Below are positions 38,219 through 63,765 of a DNA stretch of 64,000 nucleotides, piece after piece. The stretch comes from Myxococcota bacterium (GTDB lineage Bacteria; Myxococcota_A; UBA9160; UBA4427), in NCBI GenBank assembly GCA_041389495.1, contig JAWKRT010000002.1, positions 1,067,758 through 1,131,757 on the forward strand, written 5' to 3'. Position numbers and translations under genes: made by a program. The first letter of the stretch is position 1. Every line of letters starts with the position of its first letter. Under the pieces are notes generated by a model. It had not been told where the DNA came from, made no database searches, and saw only the letters and a list, made by a program, of their open reading frames with translations.

Positions 38219-39304
38219 TCAGCGCGCGAGCAGGCGCTCGAGCTGCTCGACGATGCGGCGGCCGGCGTGCCCGTCCCCGAACGGGTTCGGCCACGTGCGC
38301 GGGCGGTCGTAGAGCTCGCGTGCGCGCTCGACGATGGCGCGCTCGCGCGCGCCGGCGAGCGTGCTCGCGCCGACGGCGATCGACTCCGGGCGCTCCGTGT
38401 TGTCGCGCAGCGTGACGCACGGGACGCCCAGGCAGCACGCCTCCTCCTGCAGGCCGCCCGAGTCGGTGAGCATGAGCGCCGCGTTCGCGTGGAGCGCGAG
38501 GAACTCGCGGTAGCCGAGCGGCGGCACGACGCGCACGTGCTTCGCGTCGATCGCGATGCCGAGCTCGTCGATCTTCTTGACGGTGCGCGGGTGGAGCGCG
38601 GCCACGACGGGGAGCTCGAGCTCGATGGCCGTCGACGCGATGCCGGCGAGGATGCCGCGCAGGCGCTCCTCGTTCTCGACGTTCTCGCGCCGGTGCACGG
38701 TCGCGAGCGCGAAGCGGCGCCGCCGCAGGCCGTGCTTCGCGAGCAGCTCCGAGTCCGGCACGTCGCCCTGCAGCCGCTCGAGCTCGTCGACCACCGTGTT
38801 GCCGCTCATCACGATGCTCGTGCCGTCGACGCCCTCGGTGAGCAGCGTGTCGCGCGCGATGCGGGTCGGCGCGAAGAGGAAGTCGGCGACGTGGTCGATC
38901 TGCCGTCGGTTGATCTCCTCGGGCATCGTGCGGTCGTAGCTGCGCAGGCCCGCTTCCACGTGGGCGAGCGGCGTCGCCGTCTTGACGGCCGCGAGCGCGC
39001 CGCCGAGCGCCGAGTTCGTGTCGCCCTGCACGACGACGACGTCCGGACGCTCGCGCTCGATGATCGCCACCGTCTTCGCGAGGATGCCGCGGATCTGGTC
39101 GCCGTCGGGGCGCGACCCGATGTGCAGGTTCACGTCGGCGGGCGCGAGCTCGAGGTCGCGGAAGATGGCCTCGTCGAGCTCGTAGCTGTAGTGCTGGCCG
39201 GTGTGCACGAGCACGTGCGGGACGCCCGCCTCGCGGCACGCGCGCACGACGGGCGACATCTTGATGATCTCGGGGCGCGTCCCGAGCACGGTCATCACCT
39301 TCAC
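38219..39304 (-). CDS. wecB: UDP-N-acetylglucosamine 2-epimerase (non-hydrolysing)
   Basis: GTRPEIIK, HTGQHY, QGDTNS, HVEAGLRS, MPEEINR, TDSGGLQEEA, NPFGDG. GTG overlaps the upstream stop (GTGA). Confidence 0.95.
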   Translation of the reverse strand: MKVMTVLGTRPEIIKMSPVVRACREAGVPHVLVHTGQHYSYELDEAIFRDLELAPADVNLHIGSRPDGDQIRGILAKTVAIIERERPDVVVVQGDTNSALGGALAAVKTATPLAHVEAGLRSYDRTMPEEINRRQIDHVADFLFAPTRIARDTLLTEGVDGTSIVMSGNTVVDELERLQGDVPDSELLAKHGLRRRRFALATVHRRENVENEERLRGILAGIASTAIELELPVVAALHPRTVKKIDELGIAIDAKHVRVVPPLGYREFLALHANAALMLTDSGGLQEEACCLGVPCVTLRDNTERPESIAVGASTLAGARERAIVERARELYDRPRTWPNPFGDGHAGRRIVEQLERLLAR

Positions 39305-40113
39305 GGTCGGGCTCCTCGCGTCGCGGCGGCGAGGCGCGCGCGCACCGCGCTCGGCCGGTCCACCGTGAACGCCTCGAGCCGGCGCCGCGCGATCAGCGCG
39401 AGCGTCTTCCGGATCGTCGCGAGCACCTTCATCTTGCTGCTGCCGACGCGCGTCTCGTACTCGAGCTCGATCGGGACCTCGCAGGCGCGCACGCCCGTCG
39501 CGCGGAGCCGCAGCAGGATGTCCATCACCGCTTCGAAGCCGCGCGCGCTCGTCAGCTCGTCGCCGAACGCCGAGAGCGCGCGGCGGAGCGCGGCCGGACG
39601 ATAGGCGCGGAAGCAGCACGTGTAGTCGCGCACGCCGCGGATCGGGAAGACCGCGCGCAGCAGGAAGCGCGCGCCGTCCGAGATCAGCAGGCGCGAGCGC
39701 GGCACGCCGCGCACGCTCGCGCCGGGCTGGTAGCGCGACGCGATCACGAGCTCGTAGCCCTCGTCGAGGCGCGCGAGCAGCGTCGGGATGAGCCGGGGCG
39801 GGTGCGTGTTGTCGGCGTCGAGCGTGACGATGGCGTCGCCGTCCGCGGCCATCGCGAGGCAGGCGTCGAACCCCGTCACGAGCGCGGCGCCGAGCCCGCG
39901 GTTGCGGGCGTGGCTCACGATCTCGAGGTCGAGTGCGCCGCCCGTCTCCTCCACCGCGCGCCGCGCCTCGGCCACGGTGGCGTCGCTGCTGCCGTCGTCG
40001 ACGAGCACGACGCGCAGCGGCTCCGGCCCGCCGCCGAGCGCGCGGTGCACGGCGAGCAGCGTGGGGCGGATCACCGCCTCCTCGTTGAACGCGCACAGGA
40101 GCACGACGTTCAT
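39301..40113 (-). CDS. GT2 glycosyltransferase, polyprenol-phosphate-sugar synthase (DPM1-like)
   Basis: AFNEE, VDDGSSD, HARNRGLG, TLDADNTH, IASRY, DYTCCFRAY. ATG overlaps the upstream stop (ATGA). Confidence 0.88.
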   Translation of the reverse strand: MNVVLLCAFNEEAVIRPTLLAVHRALGGGPEPLRVVLVDDGSSDATVAEARRAVEETGGALDLEIVSHARNRGLGAALVTGFDACLAMAADGDAIVTLDADNTHPPRLIPTLLARLDEGYELVIASRYQPGASVRGVPRSRLLISDGARFLLRAVFPIRGVRDYTCCFRAYRPAALRRALSAFGDELTSARGFEAVMDILLRLRATGVRACEVPIELEYETRVGSSKMKVLATIRKTLALIARRRLEAFTVDRPSAVRARLAAATRGARP

Positions 40114-41441
40114 GCCGCCTCCCGCGCGCGCGCGGCGAGCGCGCCGTGCTGGGCGACGATCTCGGGCACGAGCTCGTCCACGACCTCGCAGCACGAGTTC
40201 CACGAGTTCACGCGCGGGTACAGCTGCGCGGTGGACACCATGTACACGCGCTTGTGCACCGCGGTGAGCGGCGGCTTGCGGCGCGAGTAGCCGAGCGTCC
40301 AGATGGGCTCGACGAAGGGAGCGCGGAACAGGAACGCGTCGACGACGCGGGCGCCGACGTGCGGAAAGAGCGCGTCGAGGTCGCGTCGGTAGGCGTCGAG
40401 CATCTCGGCGTCGCCGCGCGCGTAGAGCTCGCTCGCGCGGTGCGTGTAGTTGACGAAGTAGCAGACGTAGAGGCCGGCCGAGCGGTCGAGCGGCATGAGG
40501 TTCGACATCTCGATCACGCCCTGCGACGTGGCGCCGCTCGCGACGAAGGGCATCCAGTAGTGGGTCGACAGCGGCTTGTCGAGGAGCAGGACGCCGCTCA
40601 CGACGCCCTGGTAGTCGAGCTCGAGGTCGCGCGTCGCGGGCGCGATCGGGACGCCCTGCGTCATGCGCTGGAAGGCCGGGAGCGGCGCCGTCGAGACCAC
40701 GAAGTCGAAGCGCTCGCGCGCGCCGTCGGCGAGCACGACCGTCGCGTCGTCCGCGCCGGCCTCGATCGCGCGCACGTCGACGCCGAGCCGGATGCGCGCA
40801 CCGCGCGCCCGCAATCCGCGCTCGATCGCCTCGACGAGCGAGCGGTAGCCGCCGCGGAGCACGCCCTTGCGCTCCTTCTCGGTGTTCTTCTCGCGGTGGA
40901 GCCGGCTCGACATCCAGAGCGCGGGGATGCGGTCGTAGGAATCCCCGATCTTCGCCGCGAGCAGCGGCTTCCAGATCAGCTCGAAGGCGCGCTCGCCGAC
41001 GATGCCGCGGATCCACTCGGCGGCCGTCACGTCGTCGAGCCGCGGGTTCGTCCCGCGCAGCCGCGCCCAGACGGCCATGAACCCGAGCCGCAGTCGCTCG
41101 TCGAGGCGCAGGGGCGAGAAGCCGAGGAGATCGAGCGGCGTGTTCAGTGGATGGATGCGGCGGTCGACCATGAAGCCCATGCTCGTGCCGCGCCAGAGCA
41201 GGTCGCCCTCGAGGCCGACGTCGCGCACGAGCCGCAGCAGCGAGTCGTCGTTCGGGAGCAGGCAGTGGTAGAACTTCTCGAGCTCGCAGGTCTCGCCGTT
41301 CGGAGCCGTGTACGCGAAGCTCGTCGCGAGGCCGCCTAGCGTGTCGGTCGATTCGAACAGCGTGACGTCGCAGCCGAGCTCCGCGATGCGGAACGCGCTC
41401 GCGAGCCCCGAGATGCCTCCGCCGACGATCGCTGCCCGCAC
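40110..41441 (-). CDS. FAD-dependent oxidoreductase (protoporphyrinogen-oxidase/amine-oxidase fold) in a glycosylation locus
   Basis: GTG 41441 with RBS gggag. IVGGGISGL dinucleotide motif, E..D.LGGL, EKFYH. Confidence 0.85.
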   Translation of the reverse strand: MRAAIVGGGISGLASAFRIAELGCDVTLFESTDTLGGLATSFAYTAPNGETCELEKFYHCLLPNDDSLLRLVRDVGLEGDLLWRGTSMGFMVDRRIHPLNTPLDLLGFSPLRLDERLRLGFMAVWARLRGTNPRLDDVTAAEWIRGIVGERAFELIWKPLLAAKIGDSYDRIPALWMSSRLHREKNTEKERKGVLRGGYRSLVEAIERGLRARGARIRLGVDVRAIEAGADDATVVLADGARERFDFVVSTAPLPAFQRMTQGVPIAPATRDLELDYQGVVSGVLLLDKPLSTHYWMPFVASGATSQGVIEMSNLMPLDRSAGLYVCYFVNYTHRASELYARGDAEMLDAYRRDLDALFPHVGARVVDAFLFRAPFVEPIWTLGYSRRKPPLTAVHKRVYMVSTAQLYPRVNSWNSCCEVVDELVPEIVAQHGALAARAREAA

Positions 41442-41559
41442 GTGTCGCTCCCCGTGGTGTCCGCACCCGCGTCGATTCGCGCCGTTTCGGGAGACCGGAG
41501 GAGCATGTGCAGCGGCAGCACGGCGCGGACGGGTGCGGCGTCCGTCGCCGCCTCCGATG

Positions 41560-41575
41560 AGCAAGCGGCGTGCCA
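41560..41575 (-). promoter_or_regulatory. sigma54 (-24/-12) promoter TGGCACGCCGCTTGCT for the oxidoreductase-GT2-wecB operon
   Basis: Exact match to the TGGCACG-N4-TTGCW consensus, intergenic, ~120 nt upstream of GTG 41441. Confidence 0.85.
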
Positions 41576-41592
41576 CCCACGGCAATGCCGCT

Positions 41593-41606
41593 TCCACCAA
41601 GGTGGA
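41593..41606. promoter_or_regulatory. Palindrome TCCACC-AA-GGTGGA, putative operator
   Basis: 6-bp perfect IR with a 2-nt spacer, 17 nt upstream of the sigma54 -24 box in a divergent promoter region. Confidence 0.4.
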
Positions 41607-41702
41607 GCACGGGAACGCGTTTGGCGACGGAAGGATGGCCGCGCAACGGCGCGCCGCCTGCCGGTGGCGCGTTCCCGCGAGGCCGACGCGAAGGGGAAGC
41701 GG

Positions 41703-42668
41703 ATGACCACGATCGAGGCGACGGGTCCCCATGCGGCGCCGTCCGAGCGCGCCATCCGGGGCTCCGCAGCGGGGCGCCTCGCCGCCACCGTGAGCGTCGA
41801 CGTCGACCCCGTCGACCTGCACCTGCTCGGCTACGGGGTAGGCGACGCGCCCGCCTGCGCCCTCGTGTACGAGCGCGCCGTTCCCCGGCTCGTCGAGGCC
41901 TTCGCGCGGGCGGGCGTGCGCGCGACGTTCTTCTTCGTCGCGCGCGACCTCCCGGCCCAGCGCGCGGCCGTGGCGGCGGTCGCGGCGGCGGGTCACGAGG
42001 TGGCGAGCCACTCCGTCTCGCACGCGATGGCCTTCGCGAGCCTGCCGGACGAGGCGCTCCGCGACGAGCTCGCGACGTCGCGCGCGCGGCTCGAGGACGC
42101 GTGCGGGAGCGAGGTCGTGGGCTTCCGGGCGCCCAACTGGGACTTCGACGCGCGCACCGCGCGCGAGCTCGTCCGCGCGGGCTACGCCTACGACGCATCG
42201 GCCTACCCGACGCCGATGCTGCTCGCGGCGCGGCTCGTGCTGCTCGCGAAGGGGCAGGGCGCTTCGGCGGCCGGGCTGCGCTTCCTGCCCTTCTCGTGGT
42301 CGCGCCGCGTCTTCGACCTCGAGCGCGGCGCGCTGCGCGAGTTTCCCGTCTCGGTGACGACGTGGACGCGCTTTCCGGTCTACCACACGGCCGCCTACCT
42401 GCTCGGCGAGCGCCGCCTCGTGCGCATGGTCGAGGCGGTCGCGCGGCGCGGGCTCGCGCTCTCCTATCCGCTGCACGCCGTCGACGCGCTGGGCCTGGCC
42501 GAGGACGGCGTCGACGCCCGGCTCGCACGGCATCCCGGGATGGATCGCCCGCTCGCCGCGAAGGTCGCGACGCTCGACGCCGTGCTCGGCGCGATCGCCG
42601 CGCGGTTCGCGTGCATCCCGTTCCGCGAACGGCTGGGCGAGCGCGCGCCGGTCGCGCGCGCGAGCTAG
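41703..42668 (+). CDS. Polysaccharide deacetylase (CE4/NodB family)
   Basis: Start ATG 41703 (RBS gggaag). SVDVD, ATFF, HEVASHSVSH, GFRAP, YDAS, YPLHAVD. Confidence 0.88.
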   Translation: MTTIEATGPHAAPSERAIRGSAAGRLAATVSVDVDPVDLHLLGYGVGDAPACALVYERAVPRLVEAFARAGVRATFFFVARDLPAQRAAVAAVAAAGHEVASHSVSHAMAFASLPDEALRDELATSRARLEDACGSEVVGFRAPNWDFDARTARELVRAGYAYDASAYPTPMLLAARLVLLAKGQGASAAGLRFLPFSWSRRVFDLERGALREFPVSVTTWTRFPVYHTAAYLLGERRLVRMVEAVARRGLALSYPLHAVDALGLAEDGVDARLARHPGMDRPLAAKVATLDAVLGAIAARFACIPFRERLGERAPVARAS

Positions 42669-42671
42669 CGG

Positions 42672-44012
42672 GTGGACGCGCTGCTCGCGGCCGCGCGCGC
42701 CATCGAGCTGCCGTGGGTCGCCGCGCTCGGGGCGTTCGCCGCGCTCGCGGTGTGGCACCGCTGGCCGCGTCTCCCCGCGCGCCTGCGTGTCGCGTGGACC
42801 GCGGGCTGTGTCGCGGCCGTCGCCGCCTTCGCGGTGCGCGCCGTCTCGATCGCACGTCACCGTCTCGCCGTGCACGCCGAGTGGGACTTCCTCGGCTTCT
42901 GGATGCACGGCCGTGCCGCGTGGCTCGGGCGCGACTTCTACGACAACGAGGCGATGCGCGCGCTCGACCTGCCCTGGCCTCCCTCCGACGGGTTCGCGGC
43001 CGAGCTGCTCGTCGCGGGCTCGGTCTATCCGCCGTTCACGAGCTTCCTGTTCGCGCCGTTCGGCGCGTTCTCGTTCGAGACGGCCTACTGGCTGTGGCTC
43101 GCGTGCAACGCCGCAGCGGTCGCGGCCGCCGTCGCGCTCGCGGGGCGGCGGCTGCTCGTCGCGCACCCGCACGGGGCCCTGCTCGCCGCCGCGCTCGTCG
43201 CGCTGCTGCCCGCGACGCGCCTCACGGTCGAGGTGCAGCAGAGCTCGGGGCTCGTCCTGCTCGCGCTCGTCGCGATGGCGGTGGCGCCGCGCGCGGCCGG
43301 CGCGGGCGTCGCGCTCGCGCTCGCGGTCGTCGTGAAGCCCCTCGCCGCGCTCGTCGCGATCGCACCGCTCGCGCGGCGCCAGTGGCGCGTGCTCGGCGCG
43401 GCGGCGGCGGCGGGCGCCGCGCTCGTCGTCGCCTCGGCCGTCGTCTGGGGGCCGCAACGCTATGTCGCCTTCGCCGCGACGCCGCCGAGCCTCTCGCTGC
43501 CGGTGATCGCGACCGTGCAGCCCGTCTCGCAGGCGCTCGCCTCCGAGATCGGGCGGCGCCTCCACTCGCTCGAGCGCGGCCGGCGGCCCGAGCGCGAGCC
43601 CCTGTTCCTCGCCGCCGCGGCGGCACTCGCGCTCGCGACGCTCGCGGGGCTCGGGTCGGCGCGCGGGCTCGCGTCGCTCCCGCGCGATGCCGTCGCCGAC
43701 GGCCTCGCGCTCGGCGCGGCCGCGGCGTTCGCGCTCGTCGTGTATCCCGGCACGAAGCACCACTACGGCGTCGTGCTCGCGCTGCCCGCGTTCGCGCTGT
43801 GGCGCGCGCGCGAGCGGCTCCCGCTGCGCGCCGCGCCCGACGCGATCGCGGCCTTCGTCGGGCTCTCGTGGGGCGCGCTCGCGTGGCGGGAAGGGACGAG
43901 CGCGTGGGCCGTGTTCCTCGCGTGGTGGGCGGTGATGCTCGCGGCCGCGTGGGCAGTGCGCGCGCAGCCGCCGAGCGAGCCGGGCGAGGCCGGCGCGTCG
44001 GGCGACTCGTAG
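42672..44012 (+). CDS. GT-C membrane glycosyltransferase (GT87/DUF2029-like)
   Basis: ~10 TM segments. WDF..FW.HG....GRDFY, VYPP, VVKP motifs. Confidence 0.8.
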   Translation: MDALLAAARAIELPWVAALGAFAALAVWHRWPRLPARLRVAWTAGCVAAVAAFAVRAVSIARHRLAVHAEWDFLGFWMHGRAAWLGRDFYDNEAMRALDLPWPPSDGFAAELLVAGSVYPPFTSFLFAPFGAFSFETAYWLWLACNAAAVAAAVALAGRRLLVAHPHGALLAAALVALLPATRLTVEVQQSSGLVLLALVAMAVAPRAAGAGVALALAVVVKPLAALVAIAPLARRQWRVLGAAAAAGAALVVASAVVWGPQRYVAFAATPPSLSLPVIATVQPVSQALASEIGRRLHSLERGRRPEREPLFLAAAAALALATLAGLGSARGLASLPRDAVADGLALGAAAAFALVVYPGTKHHYGVVLALPAFALWRARERLPLRAAPDAIAAFVGLSWGALAWREGTSAWAVFLAWWAVMLAAAWAVRAQPPSEPGEAGASGDS

Positions 44013-44043
44013 AGCGGGCGCGCCGCGCCTACGCTCGCGCCCG

Positions 44044-45775
44044 ATGTCGCGCCTCCGCACCGCTGCCGTCGCGTTCGCGCTCGCCGTCGCGCTCGCGCGC
44101 GCCGCGACGCACGCGTGGGTCGGCGAGGACGCGTTCATCACCTTCCGCGTCATCGACAACCTCGCGAACGGTCTCGGGCTGCGGTGGAATCCGAGCGAGC
44201 GCGTGCAGGTGTACACGCACCCGGCGTGGCTCGCGCTCAACGCGGGCGCCTATCTGCTGACGCGCGAGGTCGCGAACACGACGACGGCCGTCGCGCTCGC
44301 CTGCACGGCGCTCGCGGTCGCGCTGCTCGCGCGCGGGCGGTGGGGCGAGGCGGCGACGCGTGCCGACGCGATCTTTCCGGCGGCCGTCGTCGCGCTCGCG
44401 TGGGCGTCGTCGCCGACGCTCGCGCGCTACGCGACTTCGGGCTTCGAGACGTCGCTCACGATGGCGATCGTGTCGGCGTTCGCGCTCGCGATCGCGCGCG
44501 CGCCGGGCGCGCGCGCCCTCGGCCTCGCGACGCTCGCGGCGGCGATCGGCGCCGTGAACCGGCTCGACCTCGCCGTCCTCTTCGCGCCGCCGCTGCTCGT
44601 CGCCGCGCGCGGCGCCGCCGCGCGCGACGGCGTCGCGCGGTGCGCGCGCGCGGTCGCCGCGGGCGCGCTCCCGCTCGCGGCCTGGCTCGCGTTCGCGGCG
44701 CTCTACTACGGGAGCGTCGTGCCCAACACCGCGCTCGCGAAGCTCGCGCCCGGCGTGCCGCGCGGCTTCTACGCCCGCGAAGGGCTCCGCTACGTGGCCG
44801 ACCTCGCGCAGCGCGACCCGGCGGCCGCCATCGCGGTGCTCGCCGCCGCGGCGTGCGCCGCGATCGGCGTCGCCGCGCCGCGCGGCGCGCGCGCCGCGAG
44901 GGCGGGCGACCCGCCGGCACACGGCGCGCGCGCACCGGCGCGCGCACCCGCGTCGAGCTCCGCATCCGCGCGCGCACGGGCGGGGCTCGCACTCGGTGCG
45001 CTCGCTCGCCTACGCGGGCTACGCCGTCGCGGTGGGCGGCGACTTCCTCTCCGGCCGCTTCCTCGTGCCGAGCGTGTGGGCGAGCGTCGCGGTCGTCGCG
45101 GCGTCGCTCCCGGCGCTGCGCGCCGCTCGGGCCGCCGCCGCGCGCGGCGACGCGCGACCGCTCGTCGCCGGTGCGGGCGCCGCGCTCCTCGTCGCGCTCT
45201 TCGCGCTCGCGGGCGTCGTCGTCGCGCGCCGCACCCCCGCCGCCGGCCCGATCCACGCGCTCTCGCTCGCGCGGCTCGAGCTCGGGCTCGACGGGCGCTG
45301 GACGGCGTCGCCGATGGCCCGCGTCTTCGCGGCGCGCGGCGAGGCGCTGCGCGCGGAGGCCGAGCGCAGCGCGACGCCCGTCGTCGCCGTGCAGGGCGAG
45401 ATCGGCTTCGCGGGCTTCGCGGCCGGGCCGCGCGTCGAGATCGTCGACCCGCACGCGCTCGGCGACGCGTTCCTCGCGCGCCGCGCGCCCGACCCGGCGC
45501 GCCCGTGGCGCATCGGCCACCTGCCGCGCGCGCTGCCCGACGGCTACCTCGAGGCGCGCCGCACGGGCGACGCGCGCGCGCTCGCGCCGGAGCTCCGCCC
45601 GCTCTTCGCGCGCGTCGAGCTGCTCGCGCGCGCGCCGCTGTGGAGCGCGAAGCGCCTGCGCGCGATCGCGTCCGGGTCGCTCGCCGCCCTCGCGAGCGAC
45701 GCGCCGGACGGTCCGGAAGGCGTATCCTCGCGCGCCGCGCGGGCCGCGGGCCCCCGCTCGGGAGGAAGCTCGTGA
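44044..45775 (+). pseudogene. AftB-like GT-C (arabinofuranosyltransferase-like) gene with a frameshift at ~45004 (real or assembly indel)
   Basis: N-part has EDAFITFRVIDNLANGLGLRWNPSERVQVYTHP, TSGFET, YYGSVVPNTALAK. It continues in another frame (LAYAGYAVAVGGDFLSGRF...WRIGHL.R) to a stop at 45775 that overlaps the SDR start. Confidence 0.75.
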
Positions 45776-46581
45776 CGCGTCTCGCAGGCAAGGTCGGCAT
45801 CGTCACCGGCGCGGCGTCGGGCATCGGCCGCGCGACGGCGCACGCGCTCGCGCGCGAGGGGGCGTCGGTCGTGGTCGCCGACCTCGACGCGGCGGGCGCG
45901 GAGGTCGTGGCGGGCGAGATCGCGGACGCGGGCGGGCGGGCGGTCGCGTGCCGCGTCGACGTCGCCGACGAGGACGCCGTGCGCGCGATGATCGACACCG
46001 CAGTCGACGCGTTCGGCGGCCTCGACGTCCTGCACAACAACGCCGCGGCGATCGGCAGTGCGAAGCCCGGTGCCGACCACGACGTCGCGTCGATCGACGT
46101 CGACGTCTGGGACCGGACGATGGCCGTCAACCTGCGCGGCGTCTGGCTCGGCTGCAAGCACGCCATTCCGCGCATGCTCGAGCGCGGCGGCGGCTCGATC
46201 GTGAACACGTCGTCGGGCTCGTCGCTGCAGGGCGACCTCGCGAACGCGGCGTACGCGGTGTCGAAGGGCGGCGTCAACACGCTCACGCTCTACGTCGCGA
46301 CGCAGTACGGCAAGCGCGGCATCCGCTGCAACGCGATCGCGCCGGGCCTCGTGCTCTCGCACCCGGTCGAGCACTTCGGGGGCCAGCGCTACGTCGACAT
46401 GCTCGAGGAGCACCACCTGACGCCGCGCGTCGGCCGGCCGGACGACATCGCGAACGCCGTGGTCTTCCTCGCCTCGGACGAGTCGGGCTTCGTCACCGGC
46501 CAGATCCTGCGCGTCGACGGCGGCATCGTGAGCCACGCGGCGCCCGTCGCCGACCTGCGGCGCATGGCGCGCCGGGCCTAG
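45772..46581 (+). CDS. SDR-family oxidoreductase
   Basis: GTG 45772 (RBS ggagg, GTGA overlap). TGAASGIG, HNNAA, YAVSK, ITGQ/VDGG-type end. Confidence 0.92.
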   Translation: MTRLAGKVGIVTGAASGIGRATAHALAREGASVVVADLDAAGAEVVAGEIADAGGRAVACRVDVADEDAVRAMIDTAVDAFGGLDVLHNNAAAIGSAKPGADHDVASIDVDVWDRTMAVNLRGVWLGCKHAIPRMLERGGGSIVNTSSGSSLQGDLANAAYAVSKGGVNTLTLYVATQYGKRGIRCNAIAPGLVLSHPVEHFGGQRYVDMLEEHHLTPRVGRPDDIANAVVFLASDESGFVTGQILRVDGGIVSHAAPVADLRRMARRA

Positions 46582-46587
46582 CGTCGC

Positions 46588-48795
46588 GTGGGCGGAGCGT
46601 CGCCGCGCGCACCCCGCTTCGAGCCGACGTTCGCGCACTACGCGGCCGCGGCCGTCGTCGTGCTGGCACTCGGCGCGGCGGCGAGCGCGTGGCTCGCGCG
46701 CCGCGAGGAGGCCGCGCGCGCGGATGCGCTGCCTCCGTACCGCGTCGTTCCGGGACTCTTCGGCGACGGGACGGGCGAGCCCGATCCGCGCATCGCGTCG
46801 CTGCGCGCGTTCGGCGTCGAGCCCGCGTCGCTCACGCGCTGGACGCGCAGCCACGGCGGCGACGGCTCGCTCAAGTTCTCGGCGCTCGACCGGATCGATC
46901 GCGCGAACGTCGGGCGGCTCGAGGTCGCGTGGGTCTTCGACGGCGAGGCGGCGCGCCTGCGCGGCGACGGCGTCTGGCGCCGCAACGTGCAGGCGAACCC
47001 GGTCGTCGCGGGTCGCACGCTCTACGCGGCGACCGCGCAGGACACGCTCGTCGCGCTCGACGCCGCGACGGGCGCGCTGCGCTGGGAGTTCGTGCCGCGC
47101 GCCGTACCGGCGCGGCGCGGCCTCGTGTACTGGGAAGGGCGCGAGGGCGTCGCGCCGCGCCTCTACTTCGTCGCGGGCGCCGAGCTGCTCGCGCTCGACG
47201 CGGCGACGGGCGCGCCCGTCGCGTCGTTCGGCGATGCGGGAAGCGTCGCGATCGGCGAGGCGACGGCGGCGCCGGCCGTCGTCGGCGACCGGCTCGTCGC
47301 GACCACGAACTCGCCCGCGACGGTGCGGGCCTTCGACGTCGCGACGGGGCGTCCGCTCTGGCGCACGCCGCTCGTGGCCGACGGGCGCCCGATCGGCGCG
47401 GCGCCGTGGGGCGGCTTCTCGGTCGACGCGCGGCGGGGCCGCGCGTACGTCACGACGGGGAACCCGCGCCCGCCGCTCTACGGCGCGGACCGCCCCGGCA
47501 ACAACGAGCACGCGAACAGCGTCGTGTGCGTCGACCTCGAGACCGGCGCGATCGACTGGGCGTGGCAGGAGGTGCGCCACGACCTGTGGAACTTCGACAT
47601 CGCCTCGCCGCCCGTGCTCACGACGATCGAGATCGGCGGGCGCCGCGTCGACGTCGTCGCGGCACCGACCAAGATCGGCACCACCGTGCTGCTCGAGCGC
47701 GACACCGGCCTCCCGATCTTCGACCAGCGCCGGCGCCTCGCGCAGCCCTCCGTGCTCGCGGGCGAGTCGACCGCGGCCTATCAACCCGACCCCGTGCTCC
47801 CCGAGCCGTTCGCGTCGATGGAGTTCGGACCGGAGCGCGTCACGGACGTGGGCGCGGCGAACCGCGAGTCGGTCGAGTGGCAGATCGCGAACGCGACGTG
47901 GGGATGGTTCGCGACCGCGACCGTCGGGCGGCCGCTCGTCGTGTTCGGCCAGCACGGCGGCGCGGAGTGGCCGGGAGCGGCGGCCGACCCCGACACGGGC
48001 TGGCTCTACGTCCCGATCAACCACATCCCGTGGAAGATCCGCCTGTACATGCTCGCGCGCGACGAGGCGCTGCCCGCGACGCCGCCCTTCGCGCTCTACG
48101 CCGAGCGCTGCGCGCGCTGCCACGGCGCGGCGCGCGAGGGAAACTACGAGGAGCGCGGCGAGCAGGAGGTCGCCTACGCGCCCTCGCTCGTCTCGCTGAC
48201 GCAGCTCCCCGGGCTCGAGCGCGCCTATCGACTCGACTGGTTCCGCGCGCGCCACCGCGACGTCCCCGGCCTCGTCGTCGACCAGCGCGAGCTCGACGCG
48301 CTCTCGTCGGCGTTCGACGCGTTCGACGCCGAGCTGCTCGCGCGCAAGGCCACGCGCATCACGGCGACGACGGCGCAGCTCGTCGACCACGAGGGCTATC
48401 CGGGCGGCGCGCCGCCGTGGGGCGAGATCGTCGCGCTGCACCTGCCGACGGGCCGCATCGGCTGGCGCGTCCCGTTCGGCGAGTTCCCCGAGCTCACGGC
48501 GCGCGGCGTCCCGGTGACCGGCCAGCCGAACTACGGCGGTGTGATCGCGACGCGCGGCGGCCTGCTGTTCGCGACCGGAACCGTCGACGGCGAGCTGCGC
48601 GCGCTCGACGCGGCGAACGGGCGCGAGCTGTGGTCCTACAGGCTGGCCGCGTCGGGAAGCGCGCCGCCGCTCACGTACGAGCTCGACGGGCGGCAGTACG
48701 TCGCCGTCGTCGCGTCGGGCGGCCGCTTCCACAACTTCGGGGAGCGGTCGTCGAAGATCTACGCGTTCGCGCTCCCCGCGCTCGCGGACGAGTGA
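46588..48795 (+). CDS. Membrane-anchored PQQ quinoprotein (glucose-dehydrogenase family) with inserted cytochrome c domain
   Basis: N-terminal TM. FSALDRIDRANV..LEVAW, HDLWNFD, GGAEWPG, PPWG, NYGGVIATRGGL, LTYELDGRQYV. Internal CARCH heme motif. Confidence 0.88.
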   Translation: MGGASPRAPRFEPTFAHYAAAAVVVLALGAAASAWLARREEAARADALPPYRVVPGLFGDGTGEPDPRIASLRAFGVEPASLTRWTRSHGGDGSLKFSALDRIDRANVGRLEVAWVFDGEAARLRGDGVWRRNVQANPVVAGRTLYAATAQDTLVALDAATGALRWEFVPRAVPARRGLVYWEGREGVAPRLYFVAGAELLALDAATGAPVASFGDAGSVAIGEATAAPAVVGDRLVATTNSPATVRAFDVATGRPLWRTPLVADGRPIGAAPWGGFSVDARRGRAYVTTGNPRPPLYGADRPGNNEHANSVVCVDLETGAIDWAWQEVRHDLWNFDIASPPVLTTIEIGGRRVDVVAAPTKIGTTVLLERDTGLPIFDQRRRLAQPSVLAGESTAAYQPDPVLPEPFASMEFGPERVTDVGAANRESVEWQIANATWGWFATATVGRPLVVFGQHGGAEWPGAAADPDTGWLYVPINHIPWKIRLYMLARDEALPATPPFALYAERCARCHGAAREGNYEERGEQEVAYAPSLVSLTQLPGLERAYRLDWFRARHRDVPGLVVDQRELDALSSAFDAFDAELLARKATRITATTAQLVDHEGYPGGAPPWGEIVALHLPTGRIGWRVPFGEFPELTARGVPVTGQPNYGGVIATRGGLLFATGTVDGELRALDAANGRELWSYRLAASGSAPPLTYELDGRQYVAVVASGGRFHNFGERSSKIYAFALPALADE

Positions 48796-48874: not shown

Positions 48875-49927
48875 ATGGGCGAGCAGGACGTGGGCGACCT
48901 CGAGGTCGTGCGACGGGGCGTCGAGGCGTGGCTGCGCGAGCGGCTGCCGGACGGAAGGGGGCTGCGCATCGCGGACCTCGCCTTCCCGAAGGCGAGCGGC
49001 GAGAGCAGCGTGACGCTGCTCCTCGACGGCGAGCACGCCGACGGGCGCGTCGAGCGCTTCGTGCTGCGCATGGCGCCGCGCGCGAGCCAGGTGTTCGAGA
49101 CGCACGACCTGCGCCTGCAGGTGGAGATGATGGACATCGCGCGCGCGGAGGGCGTCCCCGTGCCCGACGTCGTCGGCTACGAGCCCGACGCGCGCCGGCT
49201 CGGCAGCGACTTCTACGTCATGCGCTTCACGGAGGGCGAGATCCCGCCGGACAACCCGCCCATGGTGTTCGCCGGGTGGGTGAAGGAGCTCGGCGCGGCG
49301 GAGCGCGAGCGCATGTGGCGGAGCGGGCTCGAGACGCTCGCGGCGATCCACCGCATCGACCCGGCGAAGCACGACGTCGCGCGTCTCCCGCGCGCGGGAG
49401 CGGGCGAGTCGGTCGTCGCGCACGAGCTCCGCAAGTTCGACTCGATGTTCCGCCCCGATCTGCGCGCGTCGGGCGACCCGCGCATCCTCGAGGCGTGGCG
49501 GTTCGCGCTCGCCCACGCGCCCGGGCCGGGCCCGGTGCGCGTGTGCTGGGGCGACTCGCGCGTCGGCAACATCGTCTGGCGCGAGCTCGCTCCCGTCGCC
49601 GTCCTCGACTGGGAGATGGCGAGCCTCTCGTGCCCGCTGCTCGACCTCGCGTGGTGGATCTGGATCGACCGCTGCAACAGCGTGGGGCTCGGGGCCGGGA
49701 AGCTCGCCGGCGTGCCCGAGCCCGGCGAGGCCTACGCGCAGTGGCACGCGCTCACCGGCCTGCCGATCGACGACGTCGCCTACTACGAGCTGCTCGCCGT
49801 GGTGCGCTACGCGATCGTGCTCGAGCTCAAGTTCGTGGCGATGCGCGCGGGCGACGCGGCGGCGGCCGCGCTTCCGAACTTCGCGGCCGCCTTCCTGCCC
49901 GGGCTCGTGGAGGCGTGCGCTCGCTAG
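48875..49927 (+). CDS. Phosphotransferase (APH/ACAD10-N-like) family protein
   Basis: FVLRMAP, FYVM..G, WGDSRVGN, VLDWEMA...DLAW. Confidence 0.88.
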   Translation: MGEQDVGDLEVVRRGVEAWLRERLPDGRGLRIADLAFPKASGESSVTLLLDGEHADGRVERFVLRMAPRASQVFETHDLRLQVEMMDIARAEGVPVPDVVGYEPDARRLGSDFYVMRFTEGEIPPDNPPMVFAGWVKELGAAERERMWRSGLETLAAIHRIDPAKHDVARLPRAGAGESVVAHELRKFDSMFRPDLRASGDPRILEAWRFALAHAPGPGPVRVCWGDSRVGNIVWRELAPVAVLDWEMASLSCPLLDLAWWIWIDRCNSVGLGAGKLAGVPEPGEAYAQWHALTGLPIDDVAYYELLAVVRYAIVLELKFVAMRAGDAAAAALPNFAAAFLPGLVEACAR

Positions 49928-62073: not shown

Positions 62074-63396
62074 CTAGCGCGCCGACGCGGCGCCGAGCGC
62101 GTCGCGCTCGAAGACGCCGTCCTTCAGGACCGCGAGGATGCGCGCGCGGTCGCCGAGGACCGCGATGTCCGCGAGCGGGTCGCCGTCGACGACGACGAGG
62201 TCGGCGAGCCGCCCCGCCGCGACCACGCCGAGCTCGTCGCCCATCCCCATGGCGCGCGCGCCGTTCACCGTCGCCCACCGGATCACGTCGAGCGGGTCGA
62301 CGCCGAGCTCCTTCACGTAGAGCACGAGCTCGGCCGCGTAGTCGCCATGCGGCAGCAGCGGCGTCCCGAAGTCGTCACCGACGACCATCGGAACGCCCGC
62401 TGCTGCCGCGGCCGGGATGGCTTCGCGCGTGTACTCGTAGTCGCGGCGGACGGCCGCGATGCGCGCGCGGACCTGCGCGGGCGTCTCGCGGAAGCCCTCG
62501 CTGATCGGGAGCACCTGCGCGTCGTGGTCCCAGCTCTCCGCGAGCTCGAGGAAGCGCTTCGACCACAGCATGCTCGGTACGACCACCGAGCCCGCGTCGA
62601 GGATCGCGTCGATGCACTCCTGGTCGAGCATGTCGGCGTGGTCGATGATGTCGACGCCGGCGAGCGCGCACTCGAGGATCGACGTGCGCGACGGCGCGTG
62701 CGCGCGCGTCTTGCGGCCGCGTTTGTGCACCTCGTCGACCGCCGCCCGCAGCTCCTCGCGCGACGGGTACATGTAGTCGACCGCCGGCGACGAGCCGTGG
62801 CCCGGCCCGGCGGCGATCTTGAGCACGTCGACGCCGCGTCCGACCTCTTCGCGCGCGGCGAACCGCCAGCCGTCCGCGCCGTTCGCGGCGCGCGTCAGGC
62901 CCGTGCAGCCGAGCTCCATGAAGAAGTTGCGGTTGTTCGGGTAGTCCGAGGCCTCGCCCGTCACGACGATCTCGCGCGAGCCCGCGAGGTAGCGGGGCCC
63001 GGGGATCAGCCCCATCAGGATCGCCTCCTTGAGGCTCACGTCGATCGCGAACGCGTTGCTCGACCCGATCGCGCTCGTGAAGCCGCAGTCGAGCGACGTC
63101 TTCGCGTTCACGGCCGCGAGCATCGAGAGGTAGGGCGGGGCGGCCTCGAGCCCGAGCGCCGGCGCCGTGACACCGTCGCCGAACGCGCCGAAGTGCGAGT
63201 GGAAGTGGCACTGCACCATGCCGGGCATCAGCGTCCGGCCGGCGAGCGCGACGACGCGGTCGTCGGGCCGGGTCGCGACCCGGCCGTCGTCGCCGACCTC
63301 GGCGATGCGGTTGCCGTCGACGACCACCGTCTGCGCGGGGCGCGCGGGGTGCAGGCCGTCGATCAGGTTGGCGCCGGTGAAGACCGTACGTGCCAC
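62074..63396 (-). CDS. Metal-dependent amidohydrolase (Xaa-Pro dipeptidase-like)
   Basis: GTG 63396 (RBS gaggag). LMPGMVQCHFH (HxH), DVLKI, RAHA, IIDHA, VGDD, GRLADLVVVDGDPL. Confidence 0.92.
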   Translation of the reverse strand: MARTVFTGANLIDGLHPARPAQTVVVDGNRIAEVGDDGRVATRPDDRVVALAGRTLMPGMVQCHFHSHFGAFGDGVTAPALGLEAAPPYLSMLAAVNAKTSLDCGFTSAIGSSNAFAIDVSLKEAILMGLIPGPRYLAGSREIVVTGEASDYPNNRNFFMELGCTGLTRAANGADGWRFAAREEVGRGVDVLKIAAGPGHGSSPAVDYMYPSREELRAAVDEVHKRGRKTRAHAPSRTSILECALAGVDIIDHADMLDQECIDAILDAGSVVVPSMLWSKRFLELAESWDHDAQVLPISEGFRETPAQVRARIAAVRRDYEYTREAIPAAAAAGVPMVVGDDFGTPLLPHGDYAAELVLYVKELGVDPLDVIRWATVNGARAMGMGDELGVVAAGRLADLVVVDGDPLADIAVLGDRARILAVLKDGVFERDALGAASAR

Positions 63397-63459
63397 GACT
63401 CGAGCTCCTCTTCGAGGCGAGCCCGCTCCGAGGCCCGCGCTCCTTCGCGACGACCGACC

Positions 63460-63478
63460 GTGCAACGCACTGTTGCAC
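63460..63478. promoter_or_regulatory. Perfect inverted repeat GTGCAAC-N5-GTTGCAC (operator/enhancer or leader hairpin)
   Basis: 7-bp perfect arms, read directly. Confidence 0.6.
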
Positions 63479-63501
63479 CCGGCCCTCCCATGTTCCCGAG
63501 G

Positions 63502-63517
63502 AGCAATCGACGTGCCA
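63502..63517 (-). promoter_or_regulatory. sigma54 promoter TGGCACGTCGATTGCT for the amidohydrolase
   Basis: Exact TGGCACG-N4-TTGCW match ~105 nt upstream of GTG 63396. Confidence 0.87.
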
Positions 63518-63686
63518 GCGGCTGCGCGTCGCAACGGGCCGCCTAACGCGCTCCCGCGTGCGCGGACTGCGCGATGCGCGTGTCTCGGCGTCTCGCTGTG
63601 GGGCAGTGCGCTGCGACGACGCGACGCACCGCGCGCGCGCGTGCGCCGCGGCGCACGGGTGAGGTCGCGCTCGCGCCGGCCGGGGA

Positions 63687-63702
63687 TGGCACGCCGTCTG
63701 CA
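63687..63702 (+). promoter_or_regulatory. sigma54 promoter TGGCACGCCGTCTGCA for the P450
   Basis: TGGCACG-N4-CTGCA (1 mismatch), GG-N10-GC spacing intact, 63 nt upstream of ATG 63766. Confidence 0.75.
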
Positions 63703-63765
63703 CACGCATGCGTGCGTCGCAGGAACGCGCTTCGGCGCCGTCCGGGTCAGGAGAGCGAGACAGGC

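Follow-up and report, generated by a model that had tools for sequence, protein, structure and literature searches.

A conserved gene cassette linking a PRK07233 flavoprotein to glycosyltransferase and deacetylase genes in a Myxococcota genome, and a candidate carrier-linked amino-sugar pathway

We describe here a seven-gene island in a 64,000-nucleotide stretch of DNA (the window; G000:C2:1067758-1131757) from the genome of an uncultured diderm Myxococcota bacterium (5.1 Mb, 11 contigs, 96% complete). A leftward run of genes for a flavin adenine dinucleotide (FAD) oxidoreductase of the PRK07233 family, a GT2 glycosyltransferase and the epimerase WecB faces a rightward run for a CE4 deacetylase, a GT87-family GT-C, an AftB-like GT-C and a short-chain dehydrogenase/reductase (SDR) (Table 1). 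Raw open reading frame lists are uninformative at the GC content of the window (about 75%), and genes were called by third-position GC content (GC3), with a frame plot and Viterbi segmentation. Within the leftward operon, the FAD stop and GT2 start overlap as ATGA and the GT2 stop and wecB start as GTGA, while in the rightward run GTGA is shared by the stop of the AftB-like gene and the start of the SDR gene, an arrangement indicative of translational coupling. The same gene order is found at 99.6% identity on an independent Logan contig (L087), which matches positions 38915-46211 of the window. A reading of this DNA made from the sequence alone (the original prediction) had placed the seven genes, the overlaps and a perfect sigma54 site here, and all of them were recovered where it had put them. 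It had interpreted the island as a new route to a furanose donor. We find instead that the flavoprotein belongs to a family genetically linked, and in part fused, to carrier-sugar enzymes, and we propose a different pathway.

Table 1. Genes and other features of the island, with positions in the window
Feature	Position	Strand	Basis
wecB, non-hydrolysing UDP-GlcNAc 2-epimerase, 361 aa	38219-39304	-	TIGR00236, Epimerase_2
GT2, putative polyprenyl-phosphate glycosyltransferase clade, 270 aa, no transmembrane (TM) segment	39301-40113	-	PF00535
FAD oxidoreductase PRK07233, 443 aa, cytoplasmic	40110-41441	-	NF005560; GTG start, GGGGAG ribosome-binding site
Putative sigma54-type promoter TGGCAC-N5-TTGCT, facing FAD-GT2-wecB	41560-41575	-	perfect consensus match
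Inverted repeat, 10 nt, perfect	41610-41677	.	CGGGAACGCG / CGCGTTCCCG
CE4 (NodB-type) deacetylase, 321 aa, no signal peptide	41703-42668	+	Polysacc_deac_1
GT87-family GT-C, 446 aa, about 10 TM segments	42672-44012	+	PF09594; hydropathy scan
AftB-like GT-C, frameshifted in the assembly near 44999-45002	44044-45775	+	PDB 9dlf homology; 575-aa intact allele
Classical SDR, 269 aa	45772-46581	+	adh_short_C2

The flavoprotein and its genetic partners

The sequence of the flavoprotein places it fully within the unnamed PRK07233 family (NF005560, annotated as "hypothetical protein"), with a score of 378 bits against a cut-off of 252 over residues 1-430 of the 435-position model and 376.7 bits in the genome-wide search. 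It also matches NAD_binding_8 and PF01593 (Amino_oxidase; 114 bits, E=1e-32, residues 10-365), and with this match and a three-domain fold it falls within the superfamily of flavin amine oxidases, protoporphyrinogen oxidases (PPO) and phytoene desaturases (PDS). The protein has no close solved structure. When its AlphaFold (AF2) model (pLDDT 84.5) was compared with known structures by Foldseek, the top matches (E=2e-26 to 1e-20, TM scores of 0.7-0.8) were protoporphyrinogen oxidases, plant phytoene desaturase (TM scores of 0.79-0.80) and monoamine and putrescine oxidases, and neither UDP-galactopyranose mutase (UGM) nor DprE1 was among the top 50. Of the three folds with which the original prediction had suggested a comparison, it is thus the PPO-like one that was found. 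The GLF model (PF03275) had no match in the flavoprotein (E<=0.01) or anywhere in the genome (E<=0.001), and the FAD_binding_4 and ALO models typical of DprE1 did not match the protein either, Amino_oxidase and NAD_binding_8 being the only ones that did. Membership in the UGM or DprE1 families is therefore ruled out, as opposed to an analogous role, which the protein may still have.

Homologues of about 60% identity are numerous (an alignment of 14 has a mean column identity of 74%), and 735 relatives were found at E<=1e-30 among 1.84 billion representatives clustered at 50% identity. Our survey of fusions covered the best 150 representatives of this search. Among these, the FAD domain is fused to GT2 in both orders, to Polysacc_deac_1, to GtrA_DPMS_TM and, in five cases, to an S-adenosylmethionine (SAM)-methyltransferase (fusion-bearing proteins P0284, P0286, P0305, P0312, P0353, P0356, P0364, P0370 and P0390). 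That the flavoenzyme acts while the sugar is on polyprenyl phosphate is supported most strongly by the fusions to a GtrA/DPMS membrane domain and to a carrier-sugar synthase. Across 14 control genomes, PRK07233 scored above its cut-off in only two, those of Haloferax volcanii and Methanosarcina acetivorans, and it was below the cut-off in Methanocaldococcus and Sulfolobus. A literature search found no paper on the family, and nothing relevant on bacterial or archaeal polyprenol reductases, on combinations of Arn, FAD and epimerase components or on arabinofuranose (Araf) in Myxococcus.

The products of the neighboring genes could be assigned with differing precision. WecB matches TIGR00236 over its full length (369.7 bits, cut-off of 210) as well as Epimerase_2 (E=1e-99). 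The GT2 protein matches Glycos_transf_2 (PF00535) with 93 bits, and its nearest solved relatives are all polyprenyl-phosphate glycosyltransferases, namely, Pyrococcus DPMS (3e-19), three ArnC entries (about 1e-13) and GtrB. It scores below every NCBIfam equivalog cut-off, including those of PgfS, its best NCBIfam match (58 bits, cut-off of 500), ArnC (57 bits, cut-off of 529) and PpgS (41.5 bits, cut-off of 370), and its similarity to these three is best described as one at the level of the clade only. In the CE4 protein (Polysacc_deac_1, 63 bits), the DxD, HSxxH and RxP motifs are readable, while the score on the ArnD equivalog NF011923 is 17.6 bits (cut-off of 382). Since it has no signal peptide, this deacetylase should act in the cytoplasm, as ArnD does. 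The GT87 protein matches PF09594 with 95.4 bits (residues 118-359, gathering cut-off of 25) and reaches 23 bits on the mycobacterial mannosyltransferase equivalog NF009915 (cut-off of 413). The only solved relative of the AftB-like protein is mycobacterial AftB (9dlf; E=1.2e-11, residues 21-388). Its N-terminal part scores 36 bits on the AftB equivalog NF041481 (cut-off of 1050), and the acidic motif of the periplasmic loop reads ED in the window, as against DD in AftB and the paralogues; we take the protein to be a distant relative of AftB and not its orthologue. The SDR matches adh_short_C2 with 221 bits and, within NCBIfam, generic models only.

The original prediction had named as a check whether the FAD gene co-occurs elsewhere with genes for GT2 and GT-C enzymes, and this was clearly confirmed. 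The set of CE4, FAD, GT2 (not always present) and WecB genes recurs at 55-60% identity at more than 50 loci, and the linkage of FAD to CE4, GT2 and usually WecB extends to a second subfamily. By tblastn, 51 species-representative loci were found in which CE4, FAD, GT2 and WecB are each 50-63% identical to the proteins of the window. The four contexts for which Pfam annotation was available have a divergent CE4 gene, then FAD, GT2 (in some) and Epimerase_2, with two to four PMT_2-type GT-C genes at the flanks. Independent genomic contexts come from Chloroflexota (L007, L032, L056 and L059) and Myxococcota (L039 and L078-L082), and two more loci (L049 and L051) have other flanking genes. The most constant partner of the FAD gene is the CE4 deacetylase, to which the original prediction had assigned no role, and this suggests an amino-sugar logic like that of the Arn system. 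In both subfamilies, nearly all of the contexts examined have GT-C genes alongside the cassette, and these are PMT_2-like rather than GT87- or AftB-like. SDR, GT87 and AftB-like genes did not adjoin the cassette in the other genomes examined, and a BLAST comparison of the GT87 and AftB-like proteins of the window with 55 related loci gave almost no matches, so that GT87 and AftB-like genes were rejected as conserved partners. The family is patchily distributed, being present in 21 of 121 genomes of the order to which the window belongs and in 1 of 24 other genomes of its own family. Four loci (L005, L012, L025 and L045) carry the labels Saccharimonadaceae, Udaeobacter or Acidiferrales and have a GC content of 70-73% and flanks of the Eisenbacteria type (UvrB, ValRS and DUF4139). 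A wider taxonomic range based on these labels was rejected on GC content and flanks, since the contigs were probably binned or labelled wrongly.

A second PRK07233 subfamily was found in eight genomes of the same order, with scores of 440-500 bits on the model and only about 30% identity to the flavoprotein of the window. In seven of these eight, the gene adjoins homologues of WecB (36%), CE4 (30%, full length) and GT2 (33-36%), the GT2 being fused behind a second CE4. This second cassette type further contains genes for a DegT-type aminotransferase, a GFO/IDH/MocA oxidoreductase, a NeuD/PglB-type (LbH) acetyltransferase, a PMT_2 GT-C and a pair of half-size EamA proteins, and a UbiA gene adjoins one cassette. 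The same arrangement, with an additional methyltransferase gene and an LPG_synthase_TM flippase-like gene, is present in a cyanobacterium and in an Acidobacteriia metagenome-assembled genome, and another genome carries a bare FAD-CE4 pair. The second cassette type (L077:5091-12896, L083:611-8656, L084:2821-15115 and L085:4362-13038) looks like a pathway for a carrier-linked diamino sugar. The association of FAD, CE4 and GT2 thus extends over two subfamilies and is old.

A candidate pathway and its alternatives

We consider it probable that the island encodes a lipid-carrier pathway of the Arn/Flm/Lgm/PpgS type for (N-acetyl)mannosamine, extended by a flavin-dependent step on the carrier-linked sugar. 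For the sugar and its carrier, the sequence of steps, the reaction of the flavoenzyme and the acceptor, we infer the following. UDP-N-acetylmannosamine (UDP-ManNAc) is very probably made by WecB. The DPMS/ArnC-like GT2 would then load the sugar onto polyprenyl phosphate at the cytoplasmic face of the membrane, and the signal-less CE4 protein would take the N-acetyl group off the carrier-linked sugar; the latter step is proposed because of the analogy with ArnD, NaxD and LgmC and because of the CE4-GT2 fusions. Next, the PRK07233 flavoenzyme would carry out a further redox reaction or isomerisation on the carrier-linked sugar, most likely the dehydrogenation of a C-OH or C-NH2 group. After flipping, GT-C enzymes (here the GT87 and AftB-like proteins, elsewhere PMT_2-like ones) would place the sugar on a periplasmic acceptor. 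In this genome, the leftward donor operon would be read from the putative sigma54 promoter. It is also conceivable, if rather tentative, that PRK07233 represents a second family, unrelated to DprE1, that remodels sugars on polyprenyl or dolichyl phosphate, be it by oxidation to a keto or imino sugar, by epimerisation or by ring isomerisation.

Several observations weigh against this amino-sugar pathway. The GT2 and CE4 proteins score far under the ArnC, PpgS and ArnD equivalog cut-offs, and about one-third of the related loci have no GT2 gene between FAD and wecB. Most of the 50-plus loci are syntenic Eisenbacteria loci (with UvrB, BirA, TatC and ValRS flanks) and thus not independent. Some loci of the second subfamily are without WecB, and hence the sugar would not always be manno-configured. 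Our literature search found no biochemical data for any PRK07233 member. Furthermore, no flippase was recognisable within about 10 kb of the island, although such genes are present beside related cassettes: in a hydropathy scan of this region, the two GT-Cs were the only polytopic membrane proteins. The original prediction had stated that the window holds no Wzx or Wzy, and the scan agrees with this within those 10 kb, the whole window not having been scanned with Pfam.

The original prediction had proposed that the flavoprotein makes a furanose or epimerised, lipid- or nucleotide-linked donor for the AftB-like GT-C, acting either by itself as a mutase of the UGM kind or jointly with the SDR in the manner of DprE1/DprE2. 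This would agree with the FAD fusions to GT2, CE4 and GtrA, which set the flavoenzyme at the carrier-linked stage, with the translational coupling of the SDR gene to a gene for an AftB homologue and with the existence of redox-neutral flavoenzymes, such as CrtISO and UGM, in the superfamily. However, the fold is PPO/PDS/monoamine oxidase-like and the models diagnostic of UGM and DprE1 are unmatched; no SDR, AftB-like or GT87 gene belongs to the cassette in other genomes; and in a relative, the best AftB-like orthologue is unlinked to the FAD gene of that genome. In addition, the genome that contains the window has a canonical UbiA/DprE1/DprE2 cluster on another contig (C4:242669-246560, equivalent to L070:7669-11560), in which a HAD-UbiA prenyltransferase (PRK08238, 625 bits; up to 169 bits on decaprenyl-phosphate phosphoribosyltransferase models), a full-length DprE1 homologue (243438-244775; 446 bits, E=2e-133 on the DprE1 model NF053785) and a DprE2-like SDR (153 bits) are encoded in a row. 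Since this cluster can supply a conventional Araf donor, a new furanose route is unnecessary, and the AftB-like enzyme of the island might instead use polyprenyl-phosphate-arabinofuranose from there. With these findings, we consider it unlikely that the flavoprotein is a furanose-donor enzyme. Nor would D-Araf be new outside Actinobacteria, as it is already known from pilin arabinosylation by TfpW in Pseudomonas (bioRxiv 10.1101/2020.04.19.049825); pentofuranose three-component systems are treated in a commentary (PMC11194591).

The genome holds eight AftB-like paralogues, at C3:462726-465954 and five other places, four of them clustered on contig C3. Among 31 relatives, DprE1-like genes are present in 19 and AftB-like genes in 18 (13 have both, 5 have AftB-like genes alone, 6 have DprE1-like genes alone and 7 have neither). 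This is a weak association among related genomes, and we do not use it as proof. DprE1-like genes were seen in 14 of 18 relatives of the same family. A carbamoyltransferase-like gene and a gene for an AglJ/PpgS-like GT2 lie near the C4 cluster.

Two further alternatives move the chemistry away from the carrier-linked sugar. The flavoenzyme could act on the isoprenoid chain of the carrier, by saturation, desaturation or isomerisation, and so produce a dedicated dolichol-like carrier. Its closest characterised relatives do act on isoprenoids (98 bits on the HpnE model; phytoene desaturase gave the highest TM score), a UbiA gene lies beside one cassette, and the two control genomes above the cut-off, Haloferax and Methanosarcina, belong to organisms that use dolichyl phosphate. 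Nevertheless, the family is below the cut-off in Methanocaldococcus and Sulfolobus, which also have saturated dolichols, and its close pairing and its fusion with CE4 and with a SAM-methyltransferase fit chemistry at the level of the sugar better, so that action on the chain seems improbable to us. Alternatively, the GT2 protein could glycosylate a membrane lipid other than polyprenyl phosphate and, with the deacetylase, produce an amino-glycolipid head group, the GT-C genes being mere neighbors. Pairs of a GT2 and a deacetylase with such a function exist, as in HpnI/HpnK for hopanoid-glucosamine, and the position of the GT2 under every equivalog cut-off and the lack of a flippase within about 10 kb in the hydropathy scan would be compatible with it. 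We regard this as very unlikely, given that every one of the solved proteins nearest to the GT2 is a polyprenyl-phosphate glycosyltransferase, that in either subfamily GT-C genes adjoin the cassette in almost all contexts examined and that one homologue is an FAD-GtrA_DPMS_TM fusion.

Promoter, AftB-like allele and neighboring genes

The sigma54 site TGGCACGCCGCTTGCT is a perfect consensus match, lies 119 nt upstream of the FAD start and is correctly oriented. With at most one mismatch allowed, three sigma54 sites are present in the window, compared to 0.28 expected, and none of 100 shuffles reached three. The two others, at 63502-63517 (minus strand) and 63687-63702 (plus strand), one of them perfect (TGGCACGTCGATTGCT), lie in a non-coding stretch (63386-63764). 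Upstream of the FAD gene, the site was not conserved in 53 loci or in relatives of the same order, which rules out sigma54 control as a general feature of the cassette; the sigma54 link of the original prediction is specific to this genome. No gene for a sigma54 activator was found in the window among the GC3 gene calls. An inverted repeat (CGGGAACGCG / CGCGTTCCCG) located 35-100 nt upstream of the sigma54 site is a possible activator-binding site. In a relative of the same order, a gene for an NtrC-type activator (Response_reg, Sigma54_activat and HTH_8; L080:5599-7104) abuts wecB of the cassette, and genes of like size and position, known by these two properties only, are present in L081 and L082. 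At L080:11298-12944, a B12-binding radical SAM gene follows CE4 at the place where other loci carry a GT-C gene.

The coding frame of the AftB-like gene shifts within positions 44820-45008 of the window. Compared to L087, there is a single indel, in a short direct repeat at about 44999-45002, where the window has four bases more, and 19 of the 25 substitutions are synonymous. Read in frame 1 before the junction and in frame 2 after it, the AftB-like gene itself differs from L087 by 10 synonymous substitutions and one non-synonymous codon. An exact-sequence cluster look-up further revealed a 575-aa protein (P0244, Logan), encoded on L087, that shares a 90% cluster with the C-terminal fragment. 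The mostly synonymous change and the intact copy in L087 indicate that purifying selection acts on the gene and that a sister strain has it intact; the copy in the window is a null allele of very recent origin or else results from an assembly error. The original prediction had named a dead AftB-like pseudogene as a finding that would count against it; given the intact 575-aa allele and the mostly synonymous change, the gene is not a dead one in the population. Over 2.09 Mb of contigs C2-C4 of the genome, the coding frame switches on the same strand 37 times with no stop close by (about 18 times per Mb), a frequency that suggests many pseudogenes or assembly indel errors.

Seven nucleotides past the SDR stop begins a gene (46588-48795) that may be on the same transcript as the SDR gene. 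It encodes a membrane-anchored pyrroloquinoline quinone (PQQ) dehydrogenase (395 bits on PF01011) carrying a CxxCH haem-c motif. It is followed by a gene for an APH-family kinase (48875-49927).

Comparison with known systems

Carrier-linked ("non-Leloir") donors underlie lipid A modification, resistance to antimicrobial peptides, mycobacterial wall assembly and protein O-glycosylation. To our knowledge, DprE1/DprE2, of which DprE1 is a drug target, is the only enzyme pair known to remodel a sugar already loaded onto the carrier. Here we describe a large, unstudied family of flavoenzymes that is genetically locked, and partly fused, to GT2, CE4 and GtrA components in bacteria. Once its reaction is assigned, the known chemistry of lipid-linked glycan donors would gain a step, and a new surface sugar would be identified in such little-known phyla as Myxococcota, Eisenbacteria, Chloroflexota, Acidobacteriota and cyanobacteria. 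If PRK07233 were indeed a second family that remodels carrier-linked sugars, many bacterial phyla and some archaea would have donors that are unavailable as nucleotide sugars, for GT-C enzymes to place on envelope targets.

A context of the same kind is found in archaea, where a CE4-GT-arCOG00899 (flippase-like) neighborhood has been described in Methanosarcina acetivorans, for example, at MA0797/MA0798 (Makarova et al. 2015, PMC5898192). A flavoprotein is not mentioned for this context in that work, and PRK07233 is known there solely from genome-level scores. As regards three-component glycosylation, the island has a synthase-like GT2 and two GT-Cs, with no flippase candidate within about 10 kb. 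The Pgf system of Streptococcus mutans combines a GT2 (PgfS) and a sugar epimerase (PgfE) with two GT-Cs (PgfM1 and PgfM2). It differs from the island in that it has no deacetylase or flavoenzyme and in that PgfE is a 4-epimerase, and the GT2 of the island is far under the PgfS cut-off of 500.

The island most resembles in its logic the FlmF2-NaxD-FlmK system of Francisella, LgmABC of Bordetella, PpgS-Rv3779 of Mycobacterium and the Arn system (ArnC-ArnD-ArnE/F-ArnT) of Escherichia coli and Salmonella, in which a GT2 loads an N-acylated amino sugar onto polyprenyl phosphate, a deacylase acts in the cytoplasm and a GT-C carries out the transfer outside. The likeness lies in a GT2 nearest to DPMS and ArnC, a CE4 protein without a signal peptide and adjacent GT-Cs. 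In contrast to these systems, the island has a WecB-derived precursor, which would give a manno-configured sugar, a PRK07233 flavoenzyme as a constant member and GT87 and AftB-like proteins in place of ArnT-like GT-Cs, and the hydropathy scan found no flippase within about 10 kb. The decaprenyl-phosphoarabinose route (UbiA/Rv3806c, DprE1 and DprE2, with AftB and Emb) differs in that its flavoenzyme is of the VAO type and not of the GR2 amine-oxidase/PPO type and in that the island contains no phosphoribosyltransferase. Still, the island has an AftB homologue in common with this route, and the route sets a precedent for the modification of a carrier-linked sugar by a flavoenzyme ahead of transfer by a GT-C.

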